From assembly GCF_000002075.1 (NCBI RefSeq), contig NW_004797490.1:963013-1027012 (forward strand): a DNA stretch of 64,000 nt. Direction: 5' to 3'. This document shows, piece by piece, positions 35,357 to 64,000 of this stretch. The notes beneath the pieces were generated by a model. That model did not search any database. It was not told the DNA's origin and saw only the letters and a list, made by a program, of their open reading frames with translations. This DNA is from Aplysia californica (lineage: Eukaryota). Each line of letters begins with the position of its first letter. The stretch's first letter is position 1. The translations under genes were made by a program, and so were the position numbers.

Positions 35357-35800
35357 TTTACTTTTTCATCCTCTGTTGCCGTTAAGCGTCGAGGGGAGAT
35401 GAAGTTTTCTATGGTAGGCCAGCTCCGCAGCTCTTTCAGTTGTGATGTTATGTTTTCTTAGGGTTTCTTTGACACCCTCGATCCACCTTTTGCGTGGCCT
35501 TCCTCTTCCTTTATAGCCTGAGTGCTTGGTGTTGTAGGCTCTCAAGGCTGGCTGGTCAGGTGACATGCGTAACAGGTGGCCAAACCATTTTATCACCTGT
35601 CTTTCTATGTAACGCAGGCAGGACTCAGTGCCGATAGCTGCTCTTACTTCTTTATTTCTCTGCCAGTCTCGTCTTGTGATGTTAAGGGTTTTGCGGAGAC
35701 ATTTCATTTCGCATGCAGTGATTTTGCTTTCATGGGTTTTTCTACTTAAGGTCCAGGTTCGCACTGATAACATAATGTTGGTATGAATATATAGAGGTGA
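35357..35800 (-). mobile_element. 5'-truncated RTE-type LINE (C-terminal end of the RT ORF)
   Basis: WTL..ESKITACEMKCLRK..RRDWQRN..IKWFGHLLRM..GRGRPRKRW motifs, an aaaaagtaaa tail, and TSD gagggt(a/g)c. Confidence 0.85.
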
Positions 35801-35924
35801 CGAGGGTGCCAATTTTAAAAGCTGGTGGACTCATAACTTCATATTTGTTCGACTGGTGGTTTATTGTTAAGTGTTGTTGAAAGGTAAATCTAACAATAAT
35901 CAACCAACAGTTGAACAGAAATAC

Positions 35925-49393: not shown

Positions 49394-52300
49394 CTAGTAT
49401 CTGTAAAGCATGGTGCGATAAGGGTCCTGCATCTGACTCTCTGGGACAGCTGACCGACTCATGAGGTCACGCTCCTGAGTGCCTGTGGTTGATGTGGCGT
49501 GAGCATGACTGAGTTTGGAGGCACCTGGGTACTGGCGATCCTCTATGAAAGGGTATGGAGTGTTCTGGTGTGGATAGAAGCCGCGGTGTGCAGCCGCAGC
49601 AGCATAGTCTCTCTCCAACATGGCGTGTTGTGCTGTCGTCGGGTGGCTGAGGAAAGCACTGTTCACATTGTCCGACACATGCTGGCCATACGCTGCTGTG
49701 CCTGCGTACAGGTTGAAGCCACTGTTCACACCAATGCTGGAGAACATGTCTGTTGATGCAGTAGTTGGGGGCAAAGCCCGGAAGTCTTGGATGGCTGCCG
49801 TGGCAGCCGCTGCCGCTGTCTGGCGGTAGCGCTCATCAAAGGGTTTGGGTGCCGTTGGGTGTGCAGATCGCGTGTAGTCCAGGGACCCCGGTGAGCCAGA
49901 GTAAGGAGTCATGGCATTGGGGAAATAGTTGCTCAGATCAAAACGATCCAGCTGAAAAGAGTCCTGGGTTTGAGATGAAGGCAGACAAGGGAACATTCCA
50001 CGTTCAGTTGAGGTCCTAGCTGAGGGGTCAAACATAAAGTCCCGACTGCCCAGATAATTCTCTTTGCTGGGAAAGAATGGATTACTTGCAGTTGCCATGT
50101 TAGGTTGCCTCTGTAGGTACGGATTCTGCCAGTGTGTCGGCCTACCATCCTGACCAGTCCAGGCATTAGAGAATGGATGTCGTGGCATTGCCTGGGGCAT
50201 GGGTGGTGCTGGGAACATCTCTGACCCTGGCATGGTAGTTGTGCGACGCAACAAGGAGCTGGAGGTGCTAGAACGCAGAGGAGTCGAGTCTGGTATGCGT
50301 GACAGGCTGCTGCGTTCTGTTGGCTGTGGGGTCAGGAACGGTGTAGTCATGGCTTGTCGCGGGAACATGGCCTCCGCCATAAAGCTGTTTGTTACCGGTG
50401 GGCCAGAGAACAGGTTGTCTGGTTGACGCAGGTACGAACTCTCTCTACTGCCAGGCACTGTTGCTGCTGAGTGTAGTGAGTTCAGGGATGAAAATGTGTC
50501 AAAGGCAGGAGGAGGAGGAGGAGCCCCCACATTGGGAGCGAGAGGCGTGGCTGTCTGTCTCTCTGGAAGACGAGGCAATGCCGACGCTGTATCTCGGGGG
50601 TAAAATGACTCGTGATGCCGTTCTGAAGCGGCCAGGGCATCCATTCGACTACGAAGATCTGCAGGTGCCAAGGATGGGAGGGTACCATCAAGATTGGAGG
50701 TTATAACAGAGGTGGGAAGGCCAGTAGCAGGAGACTTTGTCATTTCCCTAGACCCGGGCCCAGACTTGTCCACCATGGCCTCTAGCTGTTGCAAGCCACC
50801 AGGGGAGGGTACCATACTAGCTCCTCGTGTGTGTGTCAGAGACTTCAGATACTCGTCAAAGTACTCTTTGGCAGCCTCTGTGGTTTGCTGTGAGTGTTCT
50901 GGCAGAGGCTGTGGGGGCAGGCTGTAACTGCTCGTGTCTGGCAGAGAGCTGCTGCCATCCCTCACGACACCCTCGGGGGTCTGCTCAGCACTAACGACCC
51001 GCTCCGGCTGAGACCTGGGCTCTGGGATTGAGCCATGGGAGTGCTGCATCTCAACTGAGCCAAGCGGCTGCTGCATCTCCACTGAGCCTTGGGGCCGACT
51101 CTCCATTCCACCATGGCTGGCCATGTCCATGGAGCTGTGTGAATGCATTTCCACCGAGCCATGAGGGTGATTCGTCTCCACAGAACCATGGTGAGGCATT
51201 TCCACTGAGCCCAAAGGCTGCTGTGCGTCTACTGAGCCGGCTGAGTGTAGATTCTCCATAGACGGCACAGAGGGCACTGCGGACATGGGAGCCTCCTCTG
51301 AATGGACTGAATGCTGCTGGACCAGATTAGTTGGGGGCGGCACGGAGAACGGTGTATTGGGACCTGGCACAGAAAATGGTGTGTTTGGCCCAGGGACGGA
51401 GAAAGGTGCAGGCTCTGGGTCTTCCTGCTCCATCTCATCCTCTGAGCTCTCTGGGGGCGGTGGAGCCGGGGCACGTGGTGGTGTCAGGGGGATATCATTG
51501 CTAACTTCATCGTCGTCACTCTCTTCCACCGCATAAGAGGTGGCTTCATCTACAATTTCCTCTTCCACGTTATTCACCATCTGCTCTTCTTCTGGAGCTT
51601 TAGCCTCCTCAGAGTCTGCCTGATCTTCAAGACTCTCTGGCTGTGGACATGGGCTCGGAGATCTCCCTTCATCTTCCTTCTCAGTCTCCACTGGCATATT
51701 CTCTTCCTCGAGATTGTCTGCATCTGAAAAGTCCCGGTAGGGGCTTGCCACACCCTGTATCATGTTCTCTTCACTGTACTCTGGTGAAGCTGGCCTTGAA
51801 GACGCCACTTCTTCGGGTCTGGAGGGCACTTCTACTGGGGGGTCAGGTTGAGATTCTGTTTCAACAACTTCCTCTTCTGCCTCTTCCTCCAACTCCACCT
51901 CCTTCTGTACAACAGCAGGTTCTTCTGTTTTTTCTACATTTTCCTTGGTTTCTTCTGCTTCTTCTTTTTCTTCTTTTGTTTCTTCCTCCTTTTCTTTATC
52001 CTTTGTTGGTCCCCTTTTACGCCCTGGCCTTTTCTTTACAATTACTTTCTGCATTGATTTCTTCTTTTTTGCAGTTTTAGGAGACTTTGTGGATTTTTTT
52101 GCAAGAGCTTTTTTCGCTTTGATTCTGGCACTAGGTTTCCTTTTGGGAGGTGTTTTCTTCTTCAGTTTACTCACCGAAGCCACTTTTTTCACAATCGCTG
52201 GGGATTTTCTTGCAGCCAAACGAGGAGAACTGACAGGTCCTGCTGGAGGTTCTGAGGTATTCGGCTTTTTAGGGGAGATCTTTTTCTTCTTTGGGGGGGA

Positions 52301-53586
52301 GCCGGCCATTTTATTGTCTTCAGCATTCTTGGACTTGTCGACAGACACATCACTACCTCTTTTCCTCTTGCCCTTTACAGTTTTGATGGGTTCGGACTTC
52401 TTCTCCACAACATCACTGTCTCCTCGAGCAGGAGACTTCTTTCTTCTAGGAGATTTTTTACCAGAACTTGGATCCGGATGTTCTGCCACCTTTTCAACTT
52501 TCTCCTTCGCTTGTCTCTTTTCTTTCTCTTCCAATTTTTGTTTCTTTTTCTTTTCAATTTCTAACATTTTCTCCTCTTTTTCTAGCCTTGCCTTTTCCTT
52601 AATTTCTTCTTTCTCTTTTACCTTCATTTCTATTTTTGCTTTTCTTTCCTGTTCTTTTTGGGCAGCCTTTTCCTCTTTTTGTTTCTTCAGCAGTTCCAAT
52701 TTTTCTTGCCTTTCCTTCTCCTTCAACTCAGCTTTTTCTTGTTTTGCTTGCTCCTTCTTCTCAGCCTTTTCTTTCTTCTCTTTTTCCTTCTGTTCCGTTT
52801 TTTCTTTTTTCTCTAGTTCTTTTTTTTCTGCCTTCTCCTTTTTCTCTTGCTCTTTCTTCTCTAACCTCTCTTTCTTTTCAAGTTCTTTTTTATCCGCCTT
52901 CTCGATCTTCTCCTTCTCCTTTTTCTCCTGCAACTCATTCTTCCTCAAAAGCTCTTTAGGTGGTGGTGGAAGGGGGGTGAGGACCGTGAGAGCCACTTTG
53001 TCCCGTCGAAAGTTGCCAGGAGACTCTTCCTCCGATTCATCATCACTCTTGAACTCGTACAAGTCCTTGGGCCCCCGAAACTCTGGGCTGTTCATACTTT
53101 CTCGCACTGGGTCCAAAGCAGTGACTGTTTCCATCGCCTCTTGCTCAATATCTTCCGCAACATGGTGCTGACCAGGAGCCTGACTTTCTGGGGTCACTTC
53201 TCCTGCCCCTGAGGTAACTGAGGGAGGAATGTTCCCCGACTCATTCAAACCAGTCTCAGCAGCAACTTTTGTTGTCGAAGGTGTGGCTGGCGAGTCTCTT
53301 GCCTTGTCTACACTGTCTGGCACCTGATTGGATGAATCGCTGCTGGCCTCTGAAGAGCCAGGTCTACTGCCAGGGTCTGAGCGGCGAGGCAAGGCCGAAG
53401 TATCGATAACCTGATGTACCCTCTTCTTGTGCCAGAACAACGAATTCCGCTGCTTACACTTGAAGTCACAGAGGTGGCACTGCACCGGCTTCTCGTTGGT
53501 GTGACTGCGAAAATGTACTTTGAGATTGTCTGCATGACGGAAAGATTTGCTGCAGCCGGGCCAAGTGCAGTGGTAGTTGCGTTCTC
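49394..53586 (-). CDS. Zinc-finger protein coding exon 4 (fingers 11-12, KE-rich, basic, acidic and Pro/Ser-rich C-terminal regions); total protein about 2,670 aa
   Basis: ttcgttgttccAG|GAGAACGC acceptor restores the HTG|ERNY linker in phase 1. Continues CTWPGC..HFRSH TNEKPV QCHLCDFKCKQRNSLFWHKKRVH into the 1363-aa ORF, ending at TAG 49396-49394. Confidence 0.94.
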
Positions 53587-56459
53587 CTGGAACAACGAAA
53601 AAACAATGATTCGATTAATAACAATGCATGACACTGTTTGGGTTGACTCTTTATCTACGAGGGGGGTAAACCCACTATGCCTGGGGCTTGTTTTTGGTAC
53701 TAAATCTAAAGATAAAAGACTTATTTTGATAGTTCTTCATCTAACGAATGATATCCTGATAAAAGAGACCTGTTTTCGGCAATTGCCGAAAAGTAATTTG
53801 ATGTTAAAGTCATCGTAAAGGAAAGTGCCGGAGCCGCTCCCAGCGGCTCACTTGCACAGTGGTACCAACCGCGAGCCACTGGGAACGGCTTGCCGGAGAT
53901 AAAAGAGTTAAAGAGAAGGAGAAAAGTACAAACAATGTCATCTATTACTGGAAAAAGTTTGCGGCTCGCGAACATGGCCTCGCCGGATCGAGAGCCGCAA
54001 AATATGGCTCGAGTGGCTCGCTATCTATTCCAATCCAGTAATGAAAAAATACAAAATTCTTAGCCAATCGACTTTAAAAAAATAATAGAATAGACTTCCT
54101 GTTAGCGGATATGAAAGAAAATATAGCACTGACAGACAATTTTCAGTCATTTCAGCACTTTTTTCTGTCCCCTTTGAAATGAAAAAATGAAAAAATGAAA
54201 AGAAAAGTGCTCCCCTGACTTCAGTATGTCTCATATTTTCACTTCTATAATAGGCACACATGAATAACTTTCAACTTGAACATTTCTTTGCATTGCTTGA
54301 GGCAACCTACCTGTTTGAATAATGCTGTTGTACTTTTATCATTATGACCTTTCAAAGCTGGAAAATTGTTGACTTCATATGATTCCTTTGATATTGCATA
54401 ATCACTTTTAGTAACCCCAAAATAATGTAATGGAAAAAATCTTCAATATGGTATCACCATCTGATGGATTACTTTTTTACCTTCAGTTTGATGTGCCATA
54501 TATGGTAGGTGTGTATTTAGTAGGATGTTTTGACACTTTCCTTTGGTGGGGTAGGGGTGTAAAAATAGGTCAGGGAAAAGCCCTGGGCTAGTGGTGGATT
54601 TTGGCCTGGTAGGAAAAAAGTTAAGAGCAACAAAGCTGAACTGCCAATTCTTCTGTCTCACCTTTCACCCTAAAGCGAATTTACGTAACAATGTAACCCC
54701 CTTTGACTTTGGAAATCAATTTGCTCTGATAACGAGTATTTTTGCAAAAGAAGAATGGGTAATATAAATTTGAAAACACCTGTTGTAAAATAGAAAAAAA
54801 AACCAGTTATATGGCAAGCTCAAGAAGATAAAGTTCATAAACGAAATGCTGTAATAATGATTTAAAAATACATAGGTCACAAAATGGACGAAATGGGTGT
54901 GCATGGATTCATATACTTTCCAGGTGCTGAAACATAAATATCTATTAAAAGCTTTTCTATTTCATAGAAATGTCCATGAGGGCAATGGTTATGGTACCAC
55001 TCAGTCACATCGAGTTGAAGAATGTCACACTCATGGAAATGTACCCCTTTGGCATGAGCCTCATATTCAAACTAAAAAACTGCAGAATTACTGATCTATG
55101 AAACTGCTGTCATTCATTTTAAAAAATAAGTGCCAATACTTATCGTCTTCAGAAGTGCAAAAGCTTCTCTCAAGATGTACAGTAGTTCTCTTTTCTGTAA
55201 CTTAGCCACTGAAACTGGATTTTACAGGTTACAGGCCAGGCCTATCTATTACACATATGTTAATTGAATAAAACTTTCACGCATCATAATCTGCAGGAAG
55301 AGAAAAAGAGCAGAAAATCCCTTCATTTCTAGCTTTTGACAGATGTGTGTCAAAAACAGTGCCAAGAGACACTGGTCATTGACCCATAGAGCAAACAGTT
55401 CCATGATAAATACACGAATGCCATTTGGATCTCGTGAAAATATCTTAAAATTTGCAAACAAAAAGACACAAATAAATTGGGGTTAAACAGAAAACAATAT
55501 TATTTGAATAATAACTTTTTTGAGAAAATAATTGAAATAACAGAAAAAACGGCACCAATGTAATTATGACAGAAACTTTTCACCTGCATTTAAATGAAGT
55601 GTGTTGTTGGTGCACCATATACAGTGAACTAAATCAGCAGAAAAACTTGTTTAAAACACTAGAGCCTATTCTCGTGTATTAACAGGATATCTCGCTGGCC
55701 ATATCCCTTGTATTTACGGGATGTGCTTTATCGATCGATATCTCCAGTGTTTTTCGGTTACAAGCTACAAGAAGCAGCGAGCCAACAGTTGACCCACTTG
55801 TTTCGCATCACGAAAAATTTGGTGAGGTTATGTGTGATACCCTTCGAGCTGTAACAGATTGAGTCAGTCATCCCTGCACAGCGATAAATGATTTTATTAT
55901 AAATTGAGGGCAAAAAAAAATTGCGTAACCCCCAGACATTGCCATGTCAAAATATTGACAATATACAAACTATTTGGACAAATTAGATGCAGTTTTCTTT
56001 TTCTTTGAGAGCATTTCTTTCTTTCTCTTGTTGCATTTTTCTTTTATTATGATAGACTTCACAGTCTTTTTGTGGTTAACGCTTCCATATACTGTAGAAG
56101 TGTCAGGTTGCAATGGTTGTTACGTTAAAAATAGCTCAGGCTCAAGTGAGTTAAAGTATACTGGAGTGTCCGAAAGTTTGGCTTCATGGCAATCTATTGG
56201 ACTCAGAATCATTATGAATGATGCTAATTCAAGGCACTGATAATATCGCCTCTATTCATTAAAGTAACATGGCACTGTATCAAAAAACAGTATATGATTC
56301 CTGAAAATCAATTTTTAACACAAACCAAGTGGGATCCTGTGCCTTTCAATACACAAATTGAAGCCACATTTTGATTGTTCACCGTAGTACCTGAAATGCT
56401 CATAGAATTTAAAACATCGCTATTACTGAAAGCTAAATTAAAACCAGTTTTATACATAC

Positions 56460-56739
56460 CTGTGTGCGTAATGGCATGGCGTTTCAGATGACTCCGTTTG
56501 AAGAAGGAAAAATTACAACCTTCGACATTGCAGAAAAACTTCTTTGGTACCAGGCGATGAAACTCCTCCTGGTGACTCTTGAGGAACTTTGGTGTACGGA
56601 AACTACGGCTGCAGCCAGGGATGTTACAGGAATACGGCCGAGTAGCAGTGTGTATCAGTTGATGACCTTTCAGAGCACCTGATGTTTTGAAAGTCTTCTT
56701 GCATGTTTCACACGCAAATGGTCGAACCAAAGTATGAAC
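56460..56739 (-). CDS. Zinc-finger protein coding exon 3 (fingers 8-10)
   Basis: tctcatgtcAG|GTTCAT acceptor and acag|GTATGT donor (phase 1). Reads VHTLVRPFACETCKKTF..HQLIH TATRPY CNIPGC..HQEEFH..CNVEGC..HAITHT. Confidence 0.95.
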
Positions 56740-57065
56740 CTGACATGAGAAAATAGTTAAGAGGACTCAGATAATAGAAACTACTGCTGGAACAAACATT
56801 ATTTTTACAAAATAATACAAAACTGGGGAAAGAATACTGTTGCTGAAATGAGCGGTCATATAAGAAACCCTCATACATTTGAACAACGACAAAAGCAAGG
56901 TAAAAATAAAAGATATATATTGTAAAATTATCACAATTTCTTATGCAACCCTACATTTCTGAATGGCCTGTCACCAGTAACAGCTATATGATCTATCTAA
57001 ATCATACAGGAAGCCGATCACTTCGACTTACCTGTCTCGGCCAACCCATGTTGTGTCACAATGTG

Positions 57066-57469
57066 GTTTTTTAAAAAGTTTTATTAGAGGTTTTACGGCG
57101 CTTGCAACTGCACAAGGTCATATGAGCGCCAAAGGGTGGATGTCAACAGAGAAGTCCTTACAGAAAATCAGACTAACTCTGCTCACCTCTCTAGCTTCAA
57201 CAGCACAAAGTCTGCTTCGACTATCAAGGCACCCCGGAAATTGCTGGTCACAAGAATGTGACACACATACAAAAGAAGCAGAGGAAAAAGACGATAGTAA
57301 GGATTAAGAAACAAAAAGCAGCAGTTCCCTGTTGTAGTTCAGGCACAGTTATGAGCATGACATTGTTGGATCAGCCCATTTACAATTCTACTGTGCATTA
57401 GAACGGGAAATGTCCCCCCTTTGGGAATGGCCTAAACACACTTCAGTCAGTGGCACCGCCCTGGGGGGT
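57066..57469 (-). mobile_element. Family C retroposon in zinc-finger gene intron
   Basis: Homologous to 6070-6458 and about 30 bp longer at the 5' end. TSD tcacaatgtg at 57056-57065 and 57470-57479. Confidence 0.82.
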
Positions 57470-57628
57470 TCACAATGTGTAGGATGATGCACAATTCCAG
57501 CAGAAAGAAAAAGATTCAGTAAAGTCTTCCCCCACTTGGGAATCAAACTTTTGTGGCCATAGTGATAATGGAACATCCCCAAAATACCAGTCTTAACTTG
57601 TATGTCTTTAATTTATAATTAAACTCAC

Positions 57629-57820
57629 CTTCCTATGGCGACGCATGTTGTCTTCGGTGGAGAACATTTTACCACAGTCTGGGCACTGCACGTCCCGGTC
57701 CCTTGAGGCATGCATGTTCTTGTGGTGCTTGTGCAAGTTGGCCTTATAGTTGGTGCGATACTCACACAGTTCACACTTGAACCGCTTCGGTTCATCGGGG
57801 AAGTGCGTGTGAAAATGCAC
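57629..57820 (-). CDS. Zinc-finger protein coding exon 2 (64 codons, completes finger 5, finger 6, most of finger 7)
   Basis: ctgtacccAG|GTGCAT acceptor and aag|GTGAGT donor. Reads VHFHTHFPDEPKRFKCELCEYRTNYKANLHKHHKNMH...CPDCGKMFSTEDNMRRHRK and joins its neighbours in frame. Confidence 0.95.
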
Positions 57821-58422
57821 CTGGGTACAGTAAAAATTTGGTTTGCGGTAAAATGAGTATACCAACATAGAATAATAACAGGGGGCTCAGAACAGACAGG
57901 AAAAACAGGAGAAGACGCAGAAGACATAACTAGAGGCTTATAATTCTTTAGACCGGCTGAGAGAAATACATCAGATCAAAATAACAGTAACGCTGAGGAT
58001 AGAAAAAAAAGAAGGAACTAGCGTAGATAGCTTTCCCCCCATCATTTACCACATTCCTATAATAGAAGTAACCCAGTGACCAAGAACAGCCGAGATATAG
58101 CAGGCTAAGCCTAAGCTCATAACCTTGAGCGTAAAAAAAAAAAAGGCACATACATCACTGGCAATTTAACACTGGTCGAAAAGAAAGATGCCATTAGTAG
58201 GACCATCTAGAGACACCAATCAAACCCTACTTGCAAAATGCTAACCAGAAAAGTTTCTACCCCAACCACCCTGAACAAACTCTAATGGCTGATACACCCA
58301 AAACAAACCATAATGTTAAAGGAAGAGGTAAACAATCTCAATTTAAAGCCAGCAAAAATTTTAATCATTTTATCTGTGCAGCTTTGGGTGTTTAAGGGTA
58401 CCATCATGACATGTCCGTGTTT

Positions 58423-58626
58423 TTAGTTTTAGTAGGAGTTTTACGGCACTCCCAAATGCAACACAATAAGGTCATATAAGTGCCGAAGATTAGAGGTGTT
58501 ACAAGAGAGTAACAAACACGAAAAAGAATGAGGGGAGATAGAGACAATAGATTTTTTATAGGAAAGAAGGAGCAAACCACACCAGAGCACCCGCCAACCA
58601 CACCAGAGCACCCGCCAACCACCCAT
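58423..58626 (-). mobile_element. Family B retroposon in zinc-finger gene intron
   Basis: Homologous copy with a tandem duplication at its 5' end. TSD catgtc(c/a)gtgttt on both sides. Confidence 0.85.
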
Positions 58627-58858
58627 CATGTCAGTGTTTGTGCAGTCGGGCACAGATAACTCAAACATGCCGGGGACTGACAAATGTGTTCAAAACATCC
58701 ATTATTCTGGTAAACCGATGTTAAAAAAAAAATAAAGAGATATCAGTTGGGGAATGGCATATTGTACAGGCTATCCGTAACTTTTTATAGTTTTCTGCGA
58801 CGTGTTATCTGTGCCCGACTGTATTGCTAATCTGCCACACTTCGGTAAAATAACATAC

Positions 58859-61800
58859 CTTGAGAGAGGATGCGTACTTGAACTCTTTGTCACACTGAGA
58901 GCACTTGAATGGCGTTGGGCCCTGACAATTATCAGTGTGCTCTTCTATTGTGATTTGGTCGCACTTGATGTAACGGTTACACACCTTGCACAGCTTCATG
59001 TCTAGCTTGTCTTTATGCAGTTCGCTGATGTGCTCTAGTAGCTTGGCACGTTCGTCAGTCTCAAAGTCACAGCGAGAGCATGGGAACACCCCATGTGTGA
59101 ACAGGTGTCTGTTGAGAGAGGCCATCTTAGTGCAGCCATAGTGGCAGTGAGGGCACTTGTAGGGCATGTTCACTTCGAGCATGTGCACCTTCTTCATGTG
59201 CCGGCTGAGAGCTGAACGGCCCCGTGCCTGGTGGTCGCACTGGCTGCACTTGACAAAATCGAGGCGCTTCTTGTAGCGCCTCACTGGCTTGTTGTCCTCC
59301 CCCGCACTCTCAAGACCGGTGTCCTGGCTCTCCCCGGCTTCTATCTCTGTATTTGTCATCTCATCCTTTGTCTCAGGCTCATGCACCGGCGTGTCTTGCT
59401 CAGACCCACCAGATGTTGATGCAATGCTCTCTCCTATATCGGAGGTCTCCACCCTTCCTGACACAACAGAGTCTTTGTCTTGGGGTACTAAAGTCTCGAC
59501 ATTTACATGGTTTGCAACCTGTACTTCACTTTCTGGTGGTGCTAACTGAGACACTTTAGGCTTTCCTGCAGTTTTTTTTCTCTTTTTCGGTTTTGAGGAA
59601 GTGGATGATACTTTGCTGCAATCTTTAACACTTTCACCATTTTTACCCAACAAATTCGATTCCTTTGAAACAGAAACACCTTTGCTTTTCGCTTCCTTTT
59701 CACTGCTGCACACAGCTGATGTACTTTCTTCAACTTTGCTAAATCCTTCATTCTCATCGTGAACACCATGTTCTTCAGATAACTCTGGAGTATTACTCAC
59801 AGGCTTTTTGGACTTTTTTTTTCTTTTCACTGAAGTATCAGATTTGACTGCCACCTTAACCTGAGTCTCACTTGTAGGAACATTATCACATTTCGCAGCA
59901 CTGGTCAATTGGCTACCATCTGCTACCACAGAGTCCACCACATTCGCCACATTACTCTGATCAAGGTCTGAATCGGCACTCTTAGTAGAGATTCCCACCT
60001 CAGCAACTACTGCAGTGACTCGCTTTTTAGGCGGTTTTGACGCTGCTGTACCTCCAACAGCTTTGGCCTTCGCATAGTGACTGCTCCCCACAGAAGAGGC
60101 ACCTCTGCTGGATGTGTGGCCAGCAGAGGCAGAACCAGTCTTTTTGCGGTTCTGTGCAGCATTCTTGGCCTTTGGTGGTTCCTCAAACAGGTCTCTAATG
60201 GCGGCCTCCTCTTCTTCTGTCAAACAACACTCTTCTTCAGGAGGTTCGGGCACAAACACAAAATTTTCTATGACATCATTAATTGTCTGTAAGTACTGGG
60301 CTGTTCTGTCTGCACATGACACTTCATCCATTGGAATTTCAATTCTTTTCTTTGGAGGTCTCTTTATTTTGACAACTTTTTTATCTGAATTCGCATTTGC
60401 AGAAGTCTCAGTAGAAATACTAGGTGCTTGACTCGGGACTTTCAACGTGTCTTTATTACTACAAATGTCAGCAGTAGCTGGAGTGGAGGTAGCGGTGCTA
60501 CTTGTCTCACTGAGGTGACCATTCGAACAGAGGGTGGCAGGATTGACAGATGAAGTAGCTGATGGGACAAGTTCACATTTAGATTGAGAGTCTACCTTGG
60601 TGGAAAGAGAAGCAGGCGGCTCAGCAGAAGAATCGGTTATTACTTTCTCTTGTACAGAAGACGAGACATTTATTCTTTGCAATACTTCGGACGGCACATT
60701 TGGAGAAGATGTGTCCTGACACTGCACAGCACCGCTCACAGGCTCAGAGGATCCGGACGCTGGTTCAGTCACTTTTTCACTTACATCCATCTTGTCAATA
60801 ATGGAACTGTTTCCATTGCTTGGAGATGAAAGGGGTTTTCTTTGCACATAGGTGTCCCCATTCTCAATCACACTAGACCTTTTAGGAGATTTTTTCCTTG
60901 ATTTTTTACCATGTACGGAGCTCTGAGCAGTAGGTTGGGGTTTGAGTGAGACTGCACTCGGCACAGAAACATTTGTGGATCCCTGTGTGGGAGACAGCTG
61001 TGGAACAAGAGATGCAGCCACTTCTTCCAGGGCATTGCTCTCCTTAGGACTGGTGCCAGCCTGCGTCTGACTGGACACCAAGCTTACGGCTGACTTACAG
61101 GAGGTAGACAAGTTCATCGGCTCTTCTTGCTCTGGAAGTTGCTGGAAATTCCCACTTTTCACAGCTGGAGTGGAAGAAGAGCCGAGTGACAGCCCTACCT
61201 CACAGCCATGCCCCTGTTCAGAGACGACAATATCTGCTGCGATTTCAGAGCTCTTCTCCGAAGAAATAGGGGTATCAAAGCAGTTTTTGCTGTAAACAAC
61301 ATTCGGGGTATTGGAAGCCGAATTATGAATGGCGTTCTGATATGATTCATGAGCCTGTGAATGATCTTTGTGACGAAACTTAGATGGCAAAGATGACGAA
61401 GGAGATGAAGATAATGACGATACTTGTGTTGGTAACACTGATGGCGATGTTGGTGTGGTTTGAAGAGAGGCCTTTTCAGACCCCTGTGAGAGTGATGACT
61501 CTTCAGGTAAAAGCAGGTGGGTCCCTGAGATCAAGTGGTTATTATTGTTACTAGTTGAACCTGGATGATGAGGTGACAAGTTCCCCAAACTGTGCTTCTG
61601 GGAAGATTCACTATGTGAACACACATCCGAAGGAGTAATTGCAGAGACCTTCACCTCAGCACTTTCAACTTGATCTGTAAAAGAAGAGGCTGACGTGGAA
61701 GTTGCTTCACCATTGCTTAGACATGCAGGGGTTGATTCAACACTTTCAAATTTTTTGTCATTTCCACGTCGTTTCTTGGGAGGTTTGGGAATTGCCTTTG

Positions 61801-62206
61801 TCGTCACTTCAGACTTGTTGTTAACCTCACGCTTATTATGGTTATGGTGCAAGCTGGTTGGGGATTTGGTTCCATCATTGTCATTCTTCCCCTCTGATGC
61901 TCCACTGCTACTAGGCTGGTGCACATTGCTGGGAGACTTGCTTGACTTCAGCTGTGAAGCAGAGACACCTTTGGACTTTGTTGTTCCTGACGACGTAGAG
62001 GAAGATAATGTAGAAGATGTGGATGTACTTGGTAACGCTGCCACCATTTTCCCCCCTCGCTCTACCACAACAACAGATGTCTTGCCCATGCCATCAAGCA
62101 GCTTGGCACAGTCTTCTGCATCCAGCACAACTTTTGGGGAGGTCATGCTCATCTTGAGCTTTGCCTCTGTAACCTTCTTGTGATCCTTGTCTACTTTGGT
62201 CCTCAT
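58859..62206 (-). CDS. Large multi-C2H2 zinc-finger protein, coding exon 1 (1,116 codons: Ser/Thr-rich disordered N-terminus, fingers 1-4 and most of finger 5)
   Basis: 1133-aa ORF. Acceptor (ttttcacatcttgctttcAG) opens the exon at 62288. ATG at 62206 (caagATG) has an in-frame TAG upstream at 62260-62258. Donor aag|GTATGT follows 58859 (phase 0). Fingers: CSQC..HMKKVH, CPHC..HLFTH, CSRC..HISELH, CKVC..HTDNC, CSQCDKEFKYASSLK|VHFHTH. Confidence 0.92.
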
Positions 62207-62288
62207 CTTGGATATTTGTGATCCCAGACGAAATACAACGCATAAACTCTGTAACCGCTACATTCTCTTGTGTTCACAGCCTTGATCA
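62207..62288 (-). promoter_or_regulatory. 5' UTR part of zinc-finger exon 1, with a start-stop element (ATG TAG, 62263-62258) and the start (62243) of a uORF overlapping the CDS
   Basis: Read directly from the minus strand between the acceptor at 62288 and the main ATG. Confidence 0.7.
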
Positions 62289-63763
62289 CTGAAAGCAAGA
62301 TGTGAAAATTTTTTTTTTATGTAGGATTCAATTGTGAGCCCCTGACTAGCATGCCTTTACAGAATTGGACATTTTTTAAAATAAAAAGAGTGTAAAATTT
62401 TAAAAAATATTTAAAAAATTTGTTACTTTTCCCTTGATAATAAAAAATAAAATTTGAAAGAAGAACAAGATAAAGATACAGAAACCAGAAAAAAGCCCTC
62501 ATACACAGTCTCCAACATGACAAAGTAAAACATCCTATGATAAAACATAATTGCTTGAAAGGCCCTTCTTTCTTAGATCCAGGTCAGGAGTTGCACCCAT
62601 CTCTCCTGTCTGAGACTTGCCGGGGTTTGGGAAGACAGATGTTATGTTTTTGGTTTCCATGTGTATTTTGTTTTTGTTCATCTCCAGACAAAGGGAACCA
62701 CTTGGAAGCCTATAGCTGATGCCAGGGTTACCCTGGACGAAAATCCCAATTAGATGGCAAGAATTCTTGCCTTCCAACCAAGAATGACCTGAAAGCTAGT
62801 TCTATGGACCAGTCATAAGAGATTGAGAGCAGTAGGCCACTATACCCACCTATTTAGACCGAAGTGGCATGGCGGTGAGGGAGGCCTCATCACCTAAGCC
62901 ACCGAAAGTGTAACTTGAAGAGGATTTGGGGTCTCTCTTTTGTTGGATCCGACTTTCAGTCAGCATGTCAAAAAAAAACAACCCACGATAGATGGACAGA
63001 AGACATAGCAAGAAAGAAAAAAAGATGCAACCTCTACGTCAGACAGCTAGTGACGTACAAGTGCCATCCCATCAAGGGGGTGTCCTGTTGATGGGACAGC
63101 CAACTATTTTTATTCTATTCCCTGTCAGCTTGGGGAAGGGAGAAAGTAGAAGGAAAAAGAAAGAGGATAAAAGACAGACAATACACCAAAGTATATGTCA
63201 CTCATGTGTACATGAGTGTAGATGTTCATAGACGACATTTCACTATTGAAGGGAATGCACCTCCTGCTGGTAGAGCAGCAGATTTATTTATTGGCCCCCA
63301 ACCTACTGAGGGTCGGAATGGATGACCCTGGTTTGAATCCCCAATAAGGCGCTCAGATCGAGGCTGTCTGGAGGAGTTTCAGGCTATCCGCCAATTTGGC
63401 ACAAACCTATTCGGGAATAGACATTAAATTCAGAAGTCTGCCAAATAACCTTACAATGCTGAAAGCGGCATTAAACCTACAAAATGACCAACCACCATTT
63501 ATCATCAAGGTAAACACAAAAAAAGGCATTAAATGCTGACTACCTATCTTTAAATAAACTAAGGATTTGGGAGGAAAGTCACATCCAGTCTTACCTCTCG
63601 AGGACTATTTTAAAGCATTTCTTGATTTACAAGAAAAACTTACGCTAAACTTACAAATGCTCACTCTTCTCAAACCCTTTCAAATGTACCTTATAAGGCT
63701 TCAAAAGATTGTTTTCCAGTTATGAAATAGAAAACATCAGAAATTTAAAAAATATATACTTAC

Positions 63764-63891
63764 ATTATAAAGTAAAACAAATCAAATATAACAGTTGCCC
63801 TCAACCCATTTCCAAGCTGACACAAGGTCTGCCTATGGCTGCAGAGGAGAAACAGTAAGATCCATTTTTTCACCCATTCCTTTTTGGAGGT
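63764..63891 (-). other. Candidate upstream non-coding exon of the zinc-finger gene, with two short uORFs
   Basis: Strong acceptor ttttttttcttttgcAG before 63891 and donor aat|GTAAGT after 63764. Contains MGEKMDLTVSPLQP* (63877-63833) and MG* (63809-63801). No transcript evidence. Confidence 0.4.
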
Positions 63892-64000
63892 CTGCAAAAG
63901 AAAAAAAATGACAGTCAACATAAATTTTTTTAATGTGTAGGTCAGTTCACACCTCAGTGTGATCTTGCCTGGGGCAAACATTGTATTGTTATATCGAGTT

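Follow-up and report, generated by a model that had tools for sequence, protein, structure and literature searches.

The messenger RNA of LOC101861956, a large C2H2 zinc-finger gene of Aplysia californica, holds close ahead of its main start codon a minimal start-stop element (an ATG followed directly by TAG) and then an out-of-frame upstream open reading frame (uORF) that runs across the main start. This feature is real and is present in the assembled mRNA. We consider it probable that the two elements are part of an ordinary AUG-rich leader, one that would constitutively damp production of the large zinc-finger protein and in which the main start, Met1, would be reached mostly by leaky scanning. 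In that most likely case LOC101861956 adds a further regulator gene to a pattern that is common among animal genes, in which an AUG-rich leader carries both a start-stop and an overlapping uORF. Positions refer to the window, the whole 64,000-nucleotide stretch that was analysed (Table 1); L002 denotes window positions 61001-64000 together with 7 kb of upstream sequence.

Table 1. Positions of the LOC101861956 coding span, exons and upstream elements in the window.
Feature	Position	Strand	Remarks
C2H2 zinc-finger gene LOC101861956 (P0001), coding span	49394..62206	-	2,670 aa
Met1 (caagATGa) and conserved N-terminal motif, residues 1-57	62036..62206	-	holds Met19, Met21, Met40 and Met54
49-aa out-of-frame uORF (frame +2), overlaps main start	62094..62243	-	weak context tttATGc
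Untranslated part of first coding exon, 82 nt	62207..62288	-	acceptor 62288; at least the third mRNA exon
Start-stop ATG-TAG, main frame	62258..62263	-	context agagaATGt, A at -3; ends 51 nt before Met1
Non-coding exon, 128 nt, spliced at both ends	63764..63891	-	contig joints, CT..AC
2-aa uORF, good context (ggaaATGg)	63801..63809	-	sequence
14-aa uORF, two in-frame ATGs, good context (ggaATGg, aaaATGg)	63833..63877	-	sequence

Transcript, upstream elements and protein

Four runs were compared over L002, namely X12, X6, X4 and X24. Contigs from the first three contain the joints 62288/63764 and 63891/L002:4352 (CT..AC; L002 positions 1288/2764 and 2891/4352), and these spliced CT..AC joints support the RNA status of X12, X6 and X4, which is a program's guess; the raw-read run X24 has near-zero depth across the gene and bears on the matter neither way. 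In the contigs of these three runs the upstream exon that the initial annotation had offered as a candidate is spliced in, the acceptor at 62288 is used, and both upstream ATGs (uATGs) of the first coding exon are kept intact. That exon had been called exon 1; with spliced exons upstream of it in the contigs it is at least exon 3, and the corrected gene model has at least two non-coding exons ahead of it. A downstream acceptor that would skip the uATGs was considered and rejected as the main form, the contigs (which lose rare variants) being unbroken over 62288-62094 in all three runs. Over the covered exon part X12, X6 and X4 differ from the reference at 0, 0 and 1 letters, respectively (0-1 letters in 1,288), and are therefore not usable as an outgroup.

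The further upstream exon lies beyond the window and extends from L002:4352 to 4452 in X12, 5004 in X4 and 5299 in X6 (G000:C220 from 1028364). The corresponding leaders measure 311, 863 and 1,158 nt and hold 6, 21 and 34 uATGs; contigs cannot reveal the transcription start, and the leader is to be read as at least 311 nt with at least 6 uATGs, reaching up to 1,158 nt with 34. Mean depth in X6 is 20.7 over the upstream exon as against 191.6 downstream, so transcription may begin nearer by or from a different first exon. The LOC101861956 protein has at least three RefSeq accessions with a single sequence among them, which suggests UTR variants.

With respect to the elements themselves, the initial annotation placed every one of them correctly in the minus-strand sequence, including the start-stop, the frame opening at 62243, the main ATG at 62206 and the in-frame methionines. 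The order it described, a short uORF followed by an out-of-frame uORF across the main start, is present in the mature mRNA as represented by the contigs, and its estimate of about 14 nt between the two agrees with the 14 nt found. The start-stop consists of an ATG and an immediate stop, lies in the 5' UTR and falls outside any AUG uORF, which is what defines such an element. The ATG of the overlapping uORF has T at -3 and C at +4 and lies 37 nt before Met1. Its stop, at 62096-62094, is a TGA formed by the Leu-Asp codon pair of a conserved LLDG motif, with Met40 4 nt downstream; its 49-aa peptide has no Pfam match. Further in-frame methionines are Met19 and Met21 at 62152 and 62146, Met40 at 62089 (ggcATGg) and Met54 at 62047 (aaaATGg). 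The two short uORFs predicted for the upstream exon are there as well, and it is this exon that holds the uATGs of best context; in the spliced mRNA the end of the 2-aa uORF is 62 nt from the start-stop, 82 nt from the overlapping uORF and 119 nt from Met1.

The first coding exon matches P0001, the Aplysia californica LOC101861956 protein, which has 11 canonical C2H2 fingers at residues 987-1331 (Pfam matches these too). In a local search, seven of nine other gastropod proteins shared its MRTK start and residues 1-57 (E 1e-18 to 5e-23); the remaining two, P0007 and P0009, are gene models that start elsewhere and were excluded from the methionine counts given below, leaving seven. An MRTY start is found in six of six bivalve proteins, which from their 54-62% identity across the finger array we infer to be orthologous. 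Since these gastropod MRTK and bivalve MRTY N-termini are retained, Met1 is, on sequence comparison, the conserved start of the LOC101861956 protein. The MRT(K/Y) N-terminus itself (62195-62206 on the minus strand, residues 1-4) is kept from gastropods to bivalves while the sequence beyond it diverges, and we take it to resemble histone H3 ARTK-type mimic motifs. When metagenomes were scanned with the N-terminal 58 aa, 308 pattern matches came up, of which none was confirmed, and no relative was found. A ZFP91-like identity for the gene was considered and not established: ZFP91 chains appeared only among many generic C2H2 matches and were absent from a further search. The literature searched did not mention LOC101861956, and the conserved MRT N-terminus of this uncharacterised mollusc zinc-finger family is a by-product of the analysis.

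Several neighbouring features were also recorded. About 2.4 kb past the window end, L002:5413-5523 (+) has X6 contig coverage followed by 231 letters from elsewhere, and on the plus strand it ends in ATG and then GTAAAT, as the first exon of a gene running the other way might. CGGAAG and GCCAT-type motifs, presumably ETS/YY1-like, lie at L002:5345-5427; this divergent first-exon-like contig end and these motifs together suggest a bidirectional promoter near L002:5300-5413. Roughly 15 kb upstream of the window end, at L003:7945-9426 (+), there is a 494-codon open frame with no Pfam match that may be part of the divergent gene. Series of interrupted open frames with the look of decayed DNA transposons occur at L005:5942-8156 and L006:3555-5494 (+), those in L006 being presumably P-element/THAP-like. 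Within the window, a 154-codon open frame at 35366-35830 (-) resembles what we take to be the C-terminal end of a non-LTR retrotransposon ORF, and a 371-codon open frame at 24186-25301 (+), which follows a CA repeat and an N stretch, is probably an exon of a neighbouring gene.

Frequency of the arrangement by chance

Chance expectation was gauged with dinucleotide shuffles, 5,000 per leader. The observed numbers of uATGs stand against shuffle means of 2.1 (2 observed, 82 nt), 5.1 (5, 210 nt), 6.8 (6, 311 nt) and 18.9 (21, 863 nt), and the 1,158-nt leader, with 34 as against 27.1 expected, is slightly above its mean (P = 0.044). An overlapping out-of-frame uORF, counted by itself, turned up in 45-52% of shuffles. 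The succession of a start-stop and an overlapping uORF was found in 3.9% of shuffles at 82 nt, 10% at 210 nt, 14% at 311 nt and 32-37% at 863 and 1,158 nt, and any uORF of at most 3 codons followed by an overlapping one in 8.4% (82 nt) and 31% (311 nt); this combination was chosen after the fact, and the 82-nt figures are to be read accordingly. The arrangement exceeds chance barely for the 82-nt piece alone and does not do so for the real leader.

The whole window has a density of 0.89 start-stop hexamers per kb per strand, and the one at 62263-62258 is the sole start-stop in the 1,158-nt leader. Among human genes, 1,417 of about 19,000 are reported to carry start-stops, with enrichment in transcription factors (PMC13338717), and overlapping uORFs average about 14% of uAUGs in a survey of 478 eukaryotic species whose main text is without molluscs (PMC7889888). 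Given the shuffles and these frequencies of human start-stops and of overlapping uORFs, the arrangement is unsurprising in a scan of many genes.

These figures bear on a second account, in which both elements are near-neutral by-products: two chance ATGs of an AT-rich UTR that scanning subunits mostly ignore and that serve no selected function, with the TAG doing no more than preventing an in-frame ATG from lengthening the conserved N-terminus by 19 aa. We regard this account as unlikely. It fits the shuffle-like uATG counts, the overlapping uORF in about half of shuffles, the hexamer density of the window, and the origin of the uORF stop in codons of the conserved motif. Moreover, the RNA fold over 62288-62040 gave no signal (z = -0.11; 85 of 200 shuffles fold as well), and an Rfam search over L002:900-6400 returned no matches at E <=0.1. 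Against it stand the A at -3 of the start-stop and its closeness to Met1, a location in which such elements are described as repressing more (PMC13338717), and the absence of any other start-stop in the 1,158 nt. In addition, PMC7889888 describes a general selection against overlapping uORFs and against uAUGs close to the start, so that those which do become fixed may be ones that a regulator of low output tolerates or benefits from.

We also asked whether a longer frame could lie hidden in the leader. An open frame of 81 codons, free of ATG apart from the start-stop's own, runs in the main frame through three exons from L002:4411 via 63891-63764 to 62258 (-), and the TAG of the start-stop is the sole main-frame stop between it and Met1. 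Its length was reached by 67 of 3,000 shuffles of the 311-nt leader, by 322 of 3,000 shuffles of the 863-nt leader, and by 18 of 263 overlapping intron windows. The 42-aa middle exon had one match, an unrelated repetitive protein (E 1e-4, 25% identity). With a length within reach of chance and without a credible homologue, this frame was rejected as a hidden uORF.

Modelled initiation and the choice of start codon

It is plausible that the gene is translationally repressed, as the initial annotation had suggested, because the assembled mRNA contains both elements and start-stops have a repressive effect in human reporters (PMC13338717). Specifically, under the reading that we favour, constitutive damping, the start-stop and the overlapping uORF would be the last two of at least six uATGs in a long, multi-exon leader, and output would be low at all times. 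The good-context ATGs of exon 63891-63764 would capture most scanning subunits, and the start-stop, with its A at -3, would capture a further share. Subunits that resume scanning past the start-stop would have 14 nt in which to regain initiator tRNA before the overlapping ATG, and most would presumably pass it without one; the dependence on distance behind this step is described in PMC13338717 and PMC5972666. The overlapping ATG, being weak, would cost little. With eIF2-alpha phosphorylated, subunits would re-initiate even later and run past Met1, 51 nt on from the start-stop, so that output from Met1 would remain flat or fall.

We explored this scheme with a toy model of scanning and re-initiation in which assumed parameters were swept widely (4,000 sets), reading out the stress/basal ratio of Met1 output per loaded subunit; its values are illustrations and not measurements. 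For the 82-nt piece, with the start-stop and the overlapping uORF only, the median ratio was 0.74 and no set exceeded 1. The 210-nt leader gave a median of 0.76 (23% of sets >1, 3.0% >1.5) and the 311-nt leader 0.86 (35% >1, 7.0% >1.5). An ATF4-like control reached medians of 1.14-1.24 (62-67% >1, 29-37% >1.5), and the model discriminates weakly even for this control. When ATGs of the 311-nt leader were masked (3,000 sets), modelled Met1 output gained 1.4-fold for the start-stop, 1.2-fold for the overlapping ATG, 1.9-fold for both, and 4.0-fold for the three ATGs in exon 63891-63764.

Some points count against constitutive damping. The uATGs show no depletion, an observation as compatible with indifference as with use; the 2-aa uORF sits an ATF4-like 82 nt before the overlapping ATG; and the toy model predicts a large relative induction for the longest leaders: the 863- and 1,158-nt forms show median stress rises of 5- and 43-fold, respectively, from a near-zero base, with all sets rising. 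Shuffled 863-nt leaders behave much alike, with a median of 3.9. Shuffles reached the observed ratio in 217 of 300 cases for 82 nt, 190 of 300 for 210 nt, 199 of 300 for 311 nt and 68 of 300 for 863 nt; as modelled, the real leaders of these four lengths appear no more inducible than shuffled ones.

The same results weigh on delayed re-initiation of the ATF4 type, in which the 2-aa uORF rather than the start-stop would feed the overlapping uORF, and a low level of ternary complex would let subunits bypass the latter and reach Met1. We judge this very unlikely. In its favour, the leader has a short uORF followed by an overlapping out-of-frame one, the context of the 2-aa uORF is good and its spacer 82 nt long, human ATF4 carries a start-stop too, and some rise is seen in the stated fractions of sets for 210 and 311 nt and in all sets for the long leaders. 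The pair alone, however, was never induced in the model, and the likeness of real leaders to shuffles argues the same way. The stress-inducible, ATF4-like behaviour proposed by the initial annotation is not supported, given the 14-nt spacer, the 37-nt bypass window, the weak context and, for this pair, a modelled stress response that lowers use of Met1. Were the gene nonetheless stress-inducible or isoform-switching, Aplysia would have a new target of the integrated stress response, one whose geometry differs from that of ATF4.

A shift of initiation from Met1 to a downstream in-frame ATG, brought about by stress or by leaky scanning, would yield a product without the N-terminal motif. Such an isoform switch strikes us as quite improbable, and the conserved Met54 is a more plausible downstream start for it than Met40. 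Six of the seven gastropod relatives retain Met54, its context is good, and the modelled ratio of downstream in-frame starts to Met1 goes from 0.70 to 1.68 under stress. Set against this, Met54 lies inside the conserved motif and may be retained as a residue, Met19 is kept in none of the seven and Met21 in two, and in Aplysia the good context of Met40 would capture most subunits before Met54. The particular switch between Met1 and Met40 by re-initiation that had been proposed finds no support: Met40 is a Met in none of the seven relatives, a start there would cut the conserved motif, and re-initiation, said to be permitted by uORFs of roughly 20 aa, would be inefficient after one of 49 codons (PMC4176352).

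A variant that reverses the logic of ATF4 is highly improbable. Here the start-stop, so close to Met1, would cause re-initiating ribosomes to overshoot it under eIF2-alpha phosphorylation and start at Met54. If true, stress would deprive a 2,670-aa zinc-finger regulator of a conserved N-terminal motif whose MRT start is shared by sea slugs and mussels, in an animal used for studying translation in memory. Constitutive damping remains our preferred reading of the leader.

Comparison with ATF4 and other known leaders

As a comparator for an ATF4-type leader we used the bZIP gene at G000:C6:2949200-2944025 (-), which by its resemblance we take to be ATF4/CREB2; it is a single comparator, with a leader predicted from splice signals. 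That leader has a 3-aa uORF1, a 40-nt spacer and a 63-aa overlapping uORF2 in strong context (cacaATGg, A-3/G+4), the ATG of which is followed by a donor site after 5 nt and by the main ATG after 100 nt. It also has a small third uORF overlapping uORF2, as described for ATF4 of some animals in a figure legend of PMC4176352. In the ATF4 model a permissive short uORF is followed by an inhibitory overlapping one; ternary complex is regained before the latter, and the delay caused by stress lets it be bypassed (PMC5972666, PMC10275272, PMC11058473). Paired uORFs are stated for Aplysia ATF4 (PMC4176352), and in the literature searched "ApCREB2" was not found linked with "uORF".

The LOC101861956 leader is like that of ATF4 in having a short uORF ahead of an out-of-frame uORF across the main start in the mature mRNA, and its gene is likely a transcription regulator. 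Human ATF4 carries a start-stop too (PMC13338717, PMC11058473), although there it lies ahead of uORF1 and does not serve as the re-initiating uORF. In geometry the two leaders part. The spacer is 14 nt here and 40 nt in the comparator, where the splice is predicted; the 82 nt from the 2-aa uORF to the overlapping ATG would be an ATF4-like spacer, though the start-stop intervenes. The inhibitory ATG is weak here and strong there, classed by -3 and +4 only, and it lies 37 nt from the main ATG as against 100 nt, a figure that comes from one comparator with predicted splicing; the literature searched gave no published threshold for this window. LOC101861956 also holds 4 to 32 further uATGs. The leader resembles ATF4 in the order of its parts, fails the three geometric features compared, and should not be called ATF4-type.

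Likenesses are also offered by the start-stop systems of Rendleman et al. (PMC13338717) and the 1-aa stuORFs of PMC5473865, which share with LOC101861956 an AUG-stop near the main start, a likely transcription regulator and other uORFs alongside. No test in a mollusc was found in the literature searched. According to PMC5473865, 1-aa stuORFs require DENR-MCTS1, and a strong stuORF reporter has acaaaATG where LOC101861956 has agagaATGt. A start-stop-only ATF4 reporter is described as showing hardly any stress response (PMC13338717). Finally, leaders that are generically rich in uORFs and overlapping uORFs, as surveyed in PMC7889888, share with this one their many uAUGs and an overlapping uAUG in weaker context than the main start, whereas uAUGs are generally depleted there and are not depleted in the LOC101861956 leader.
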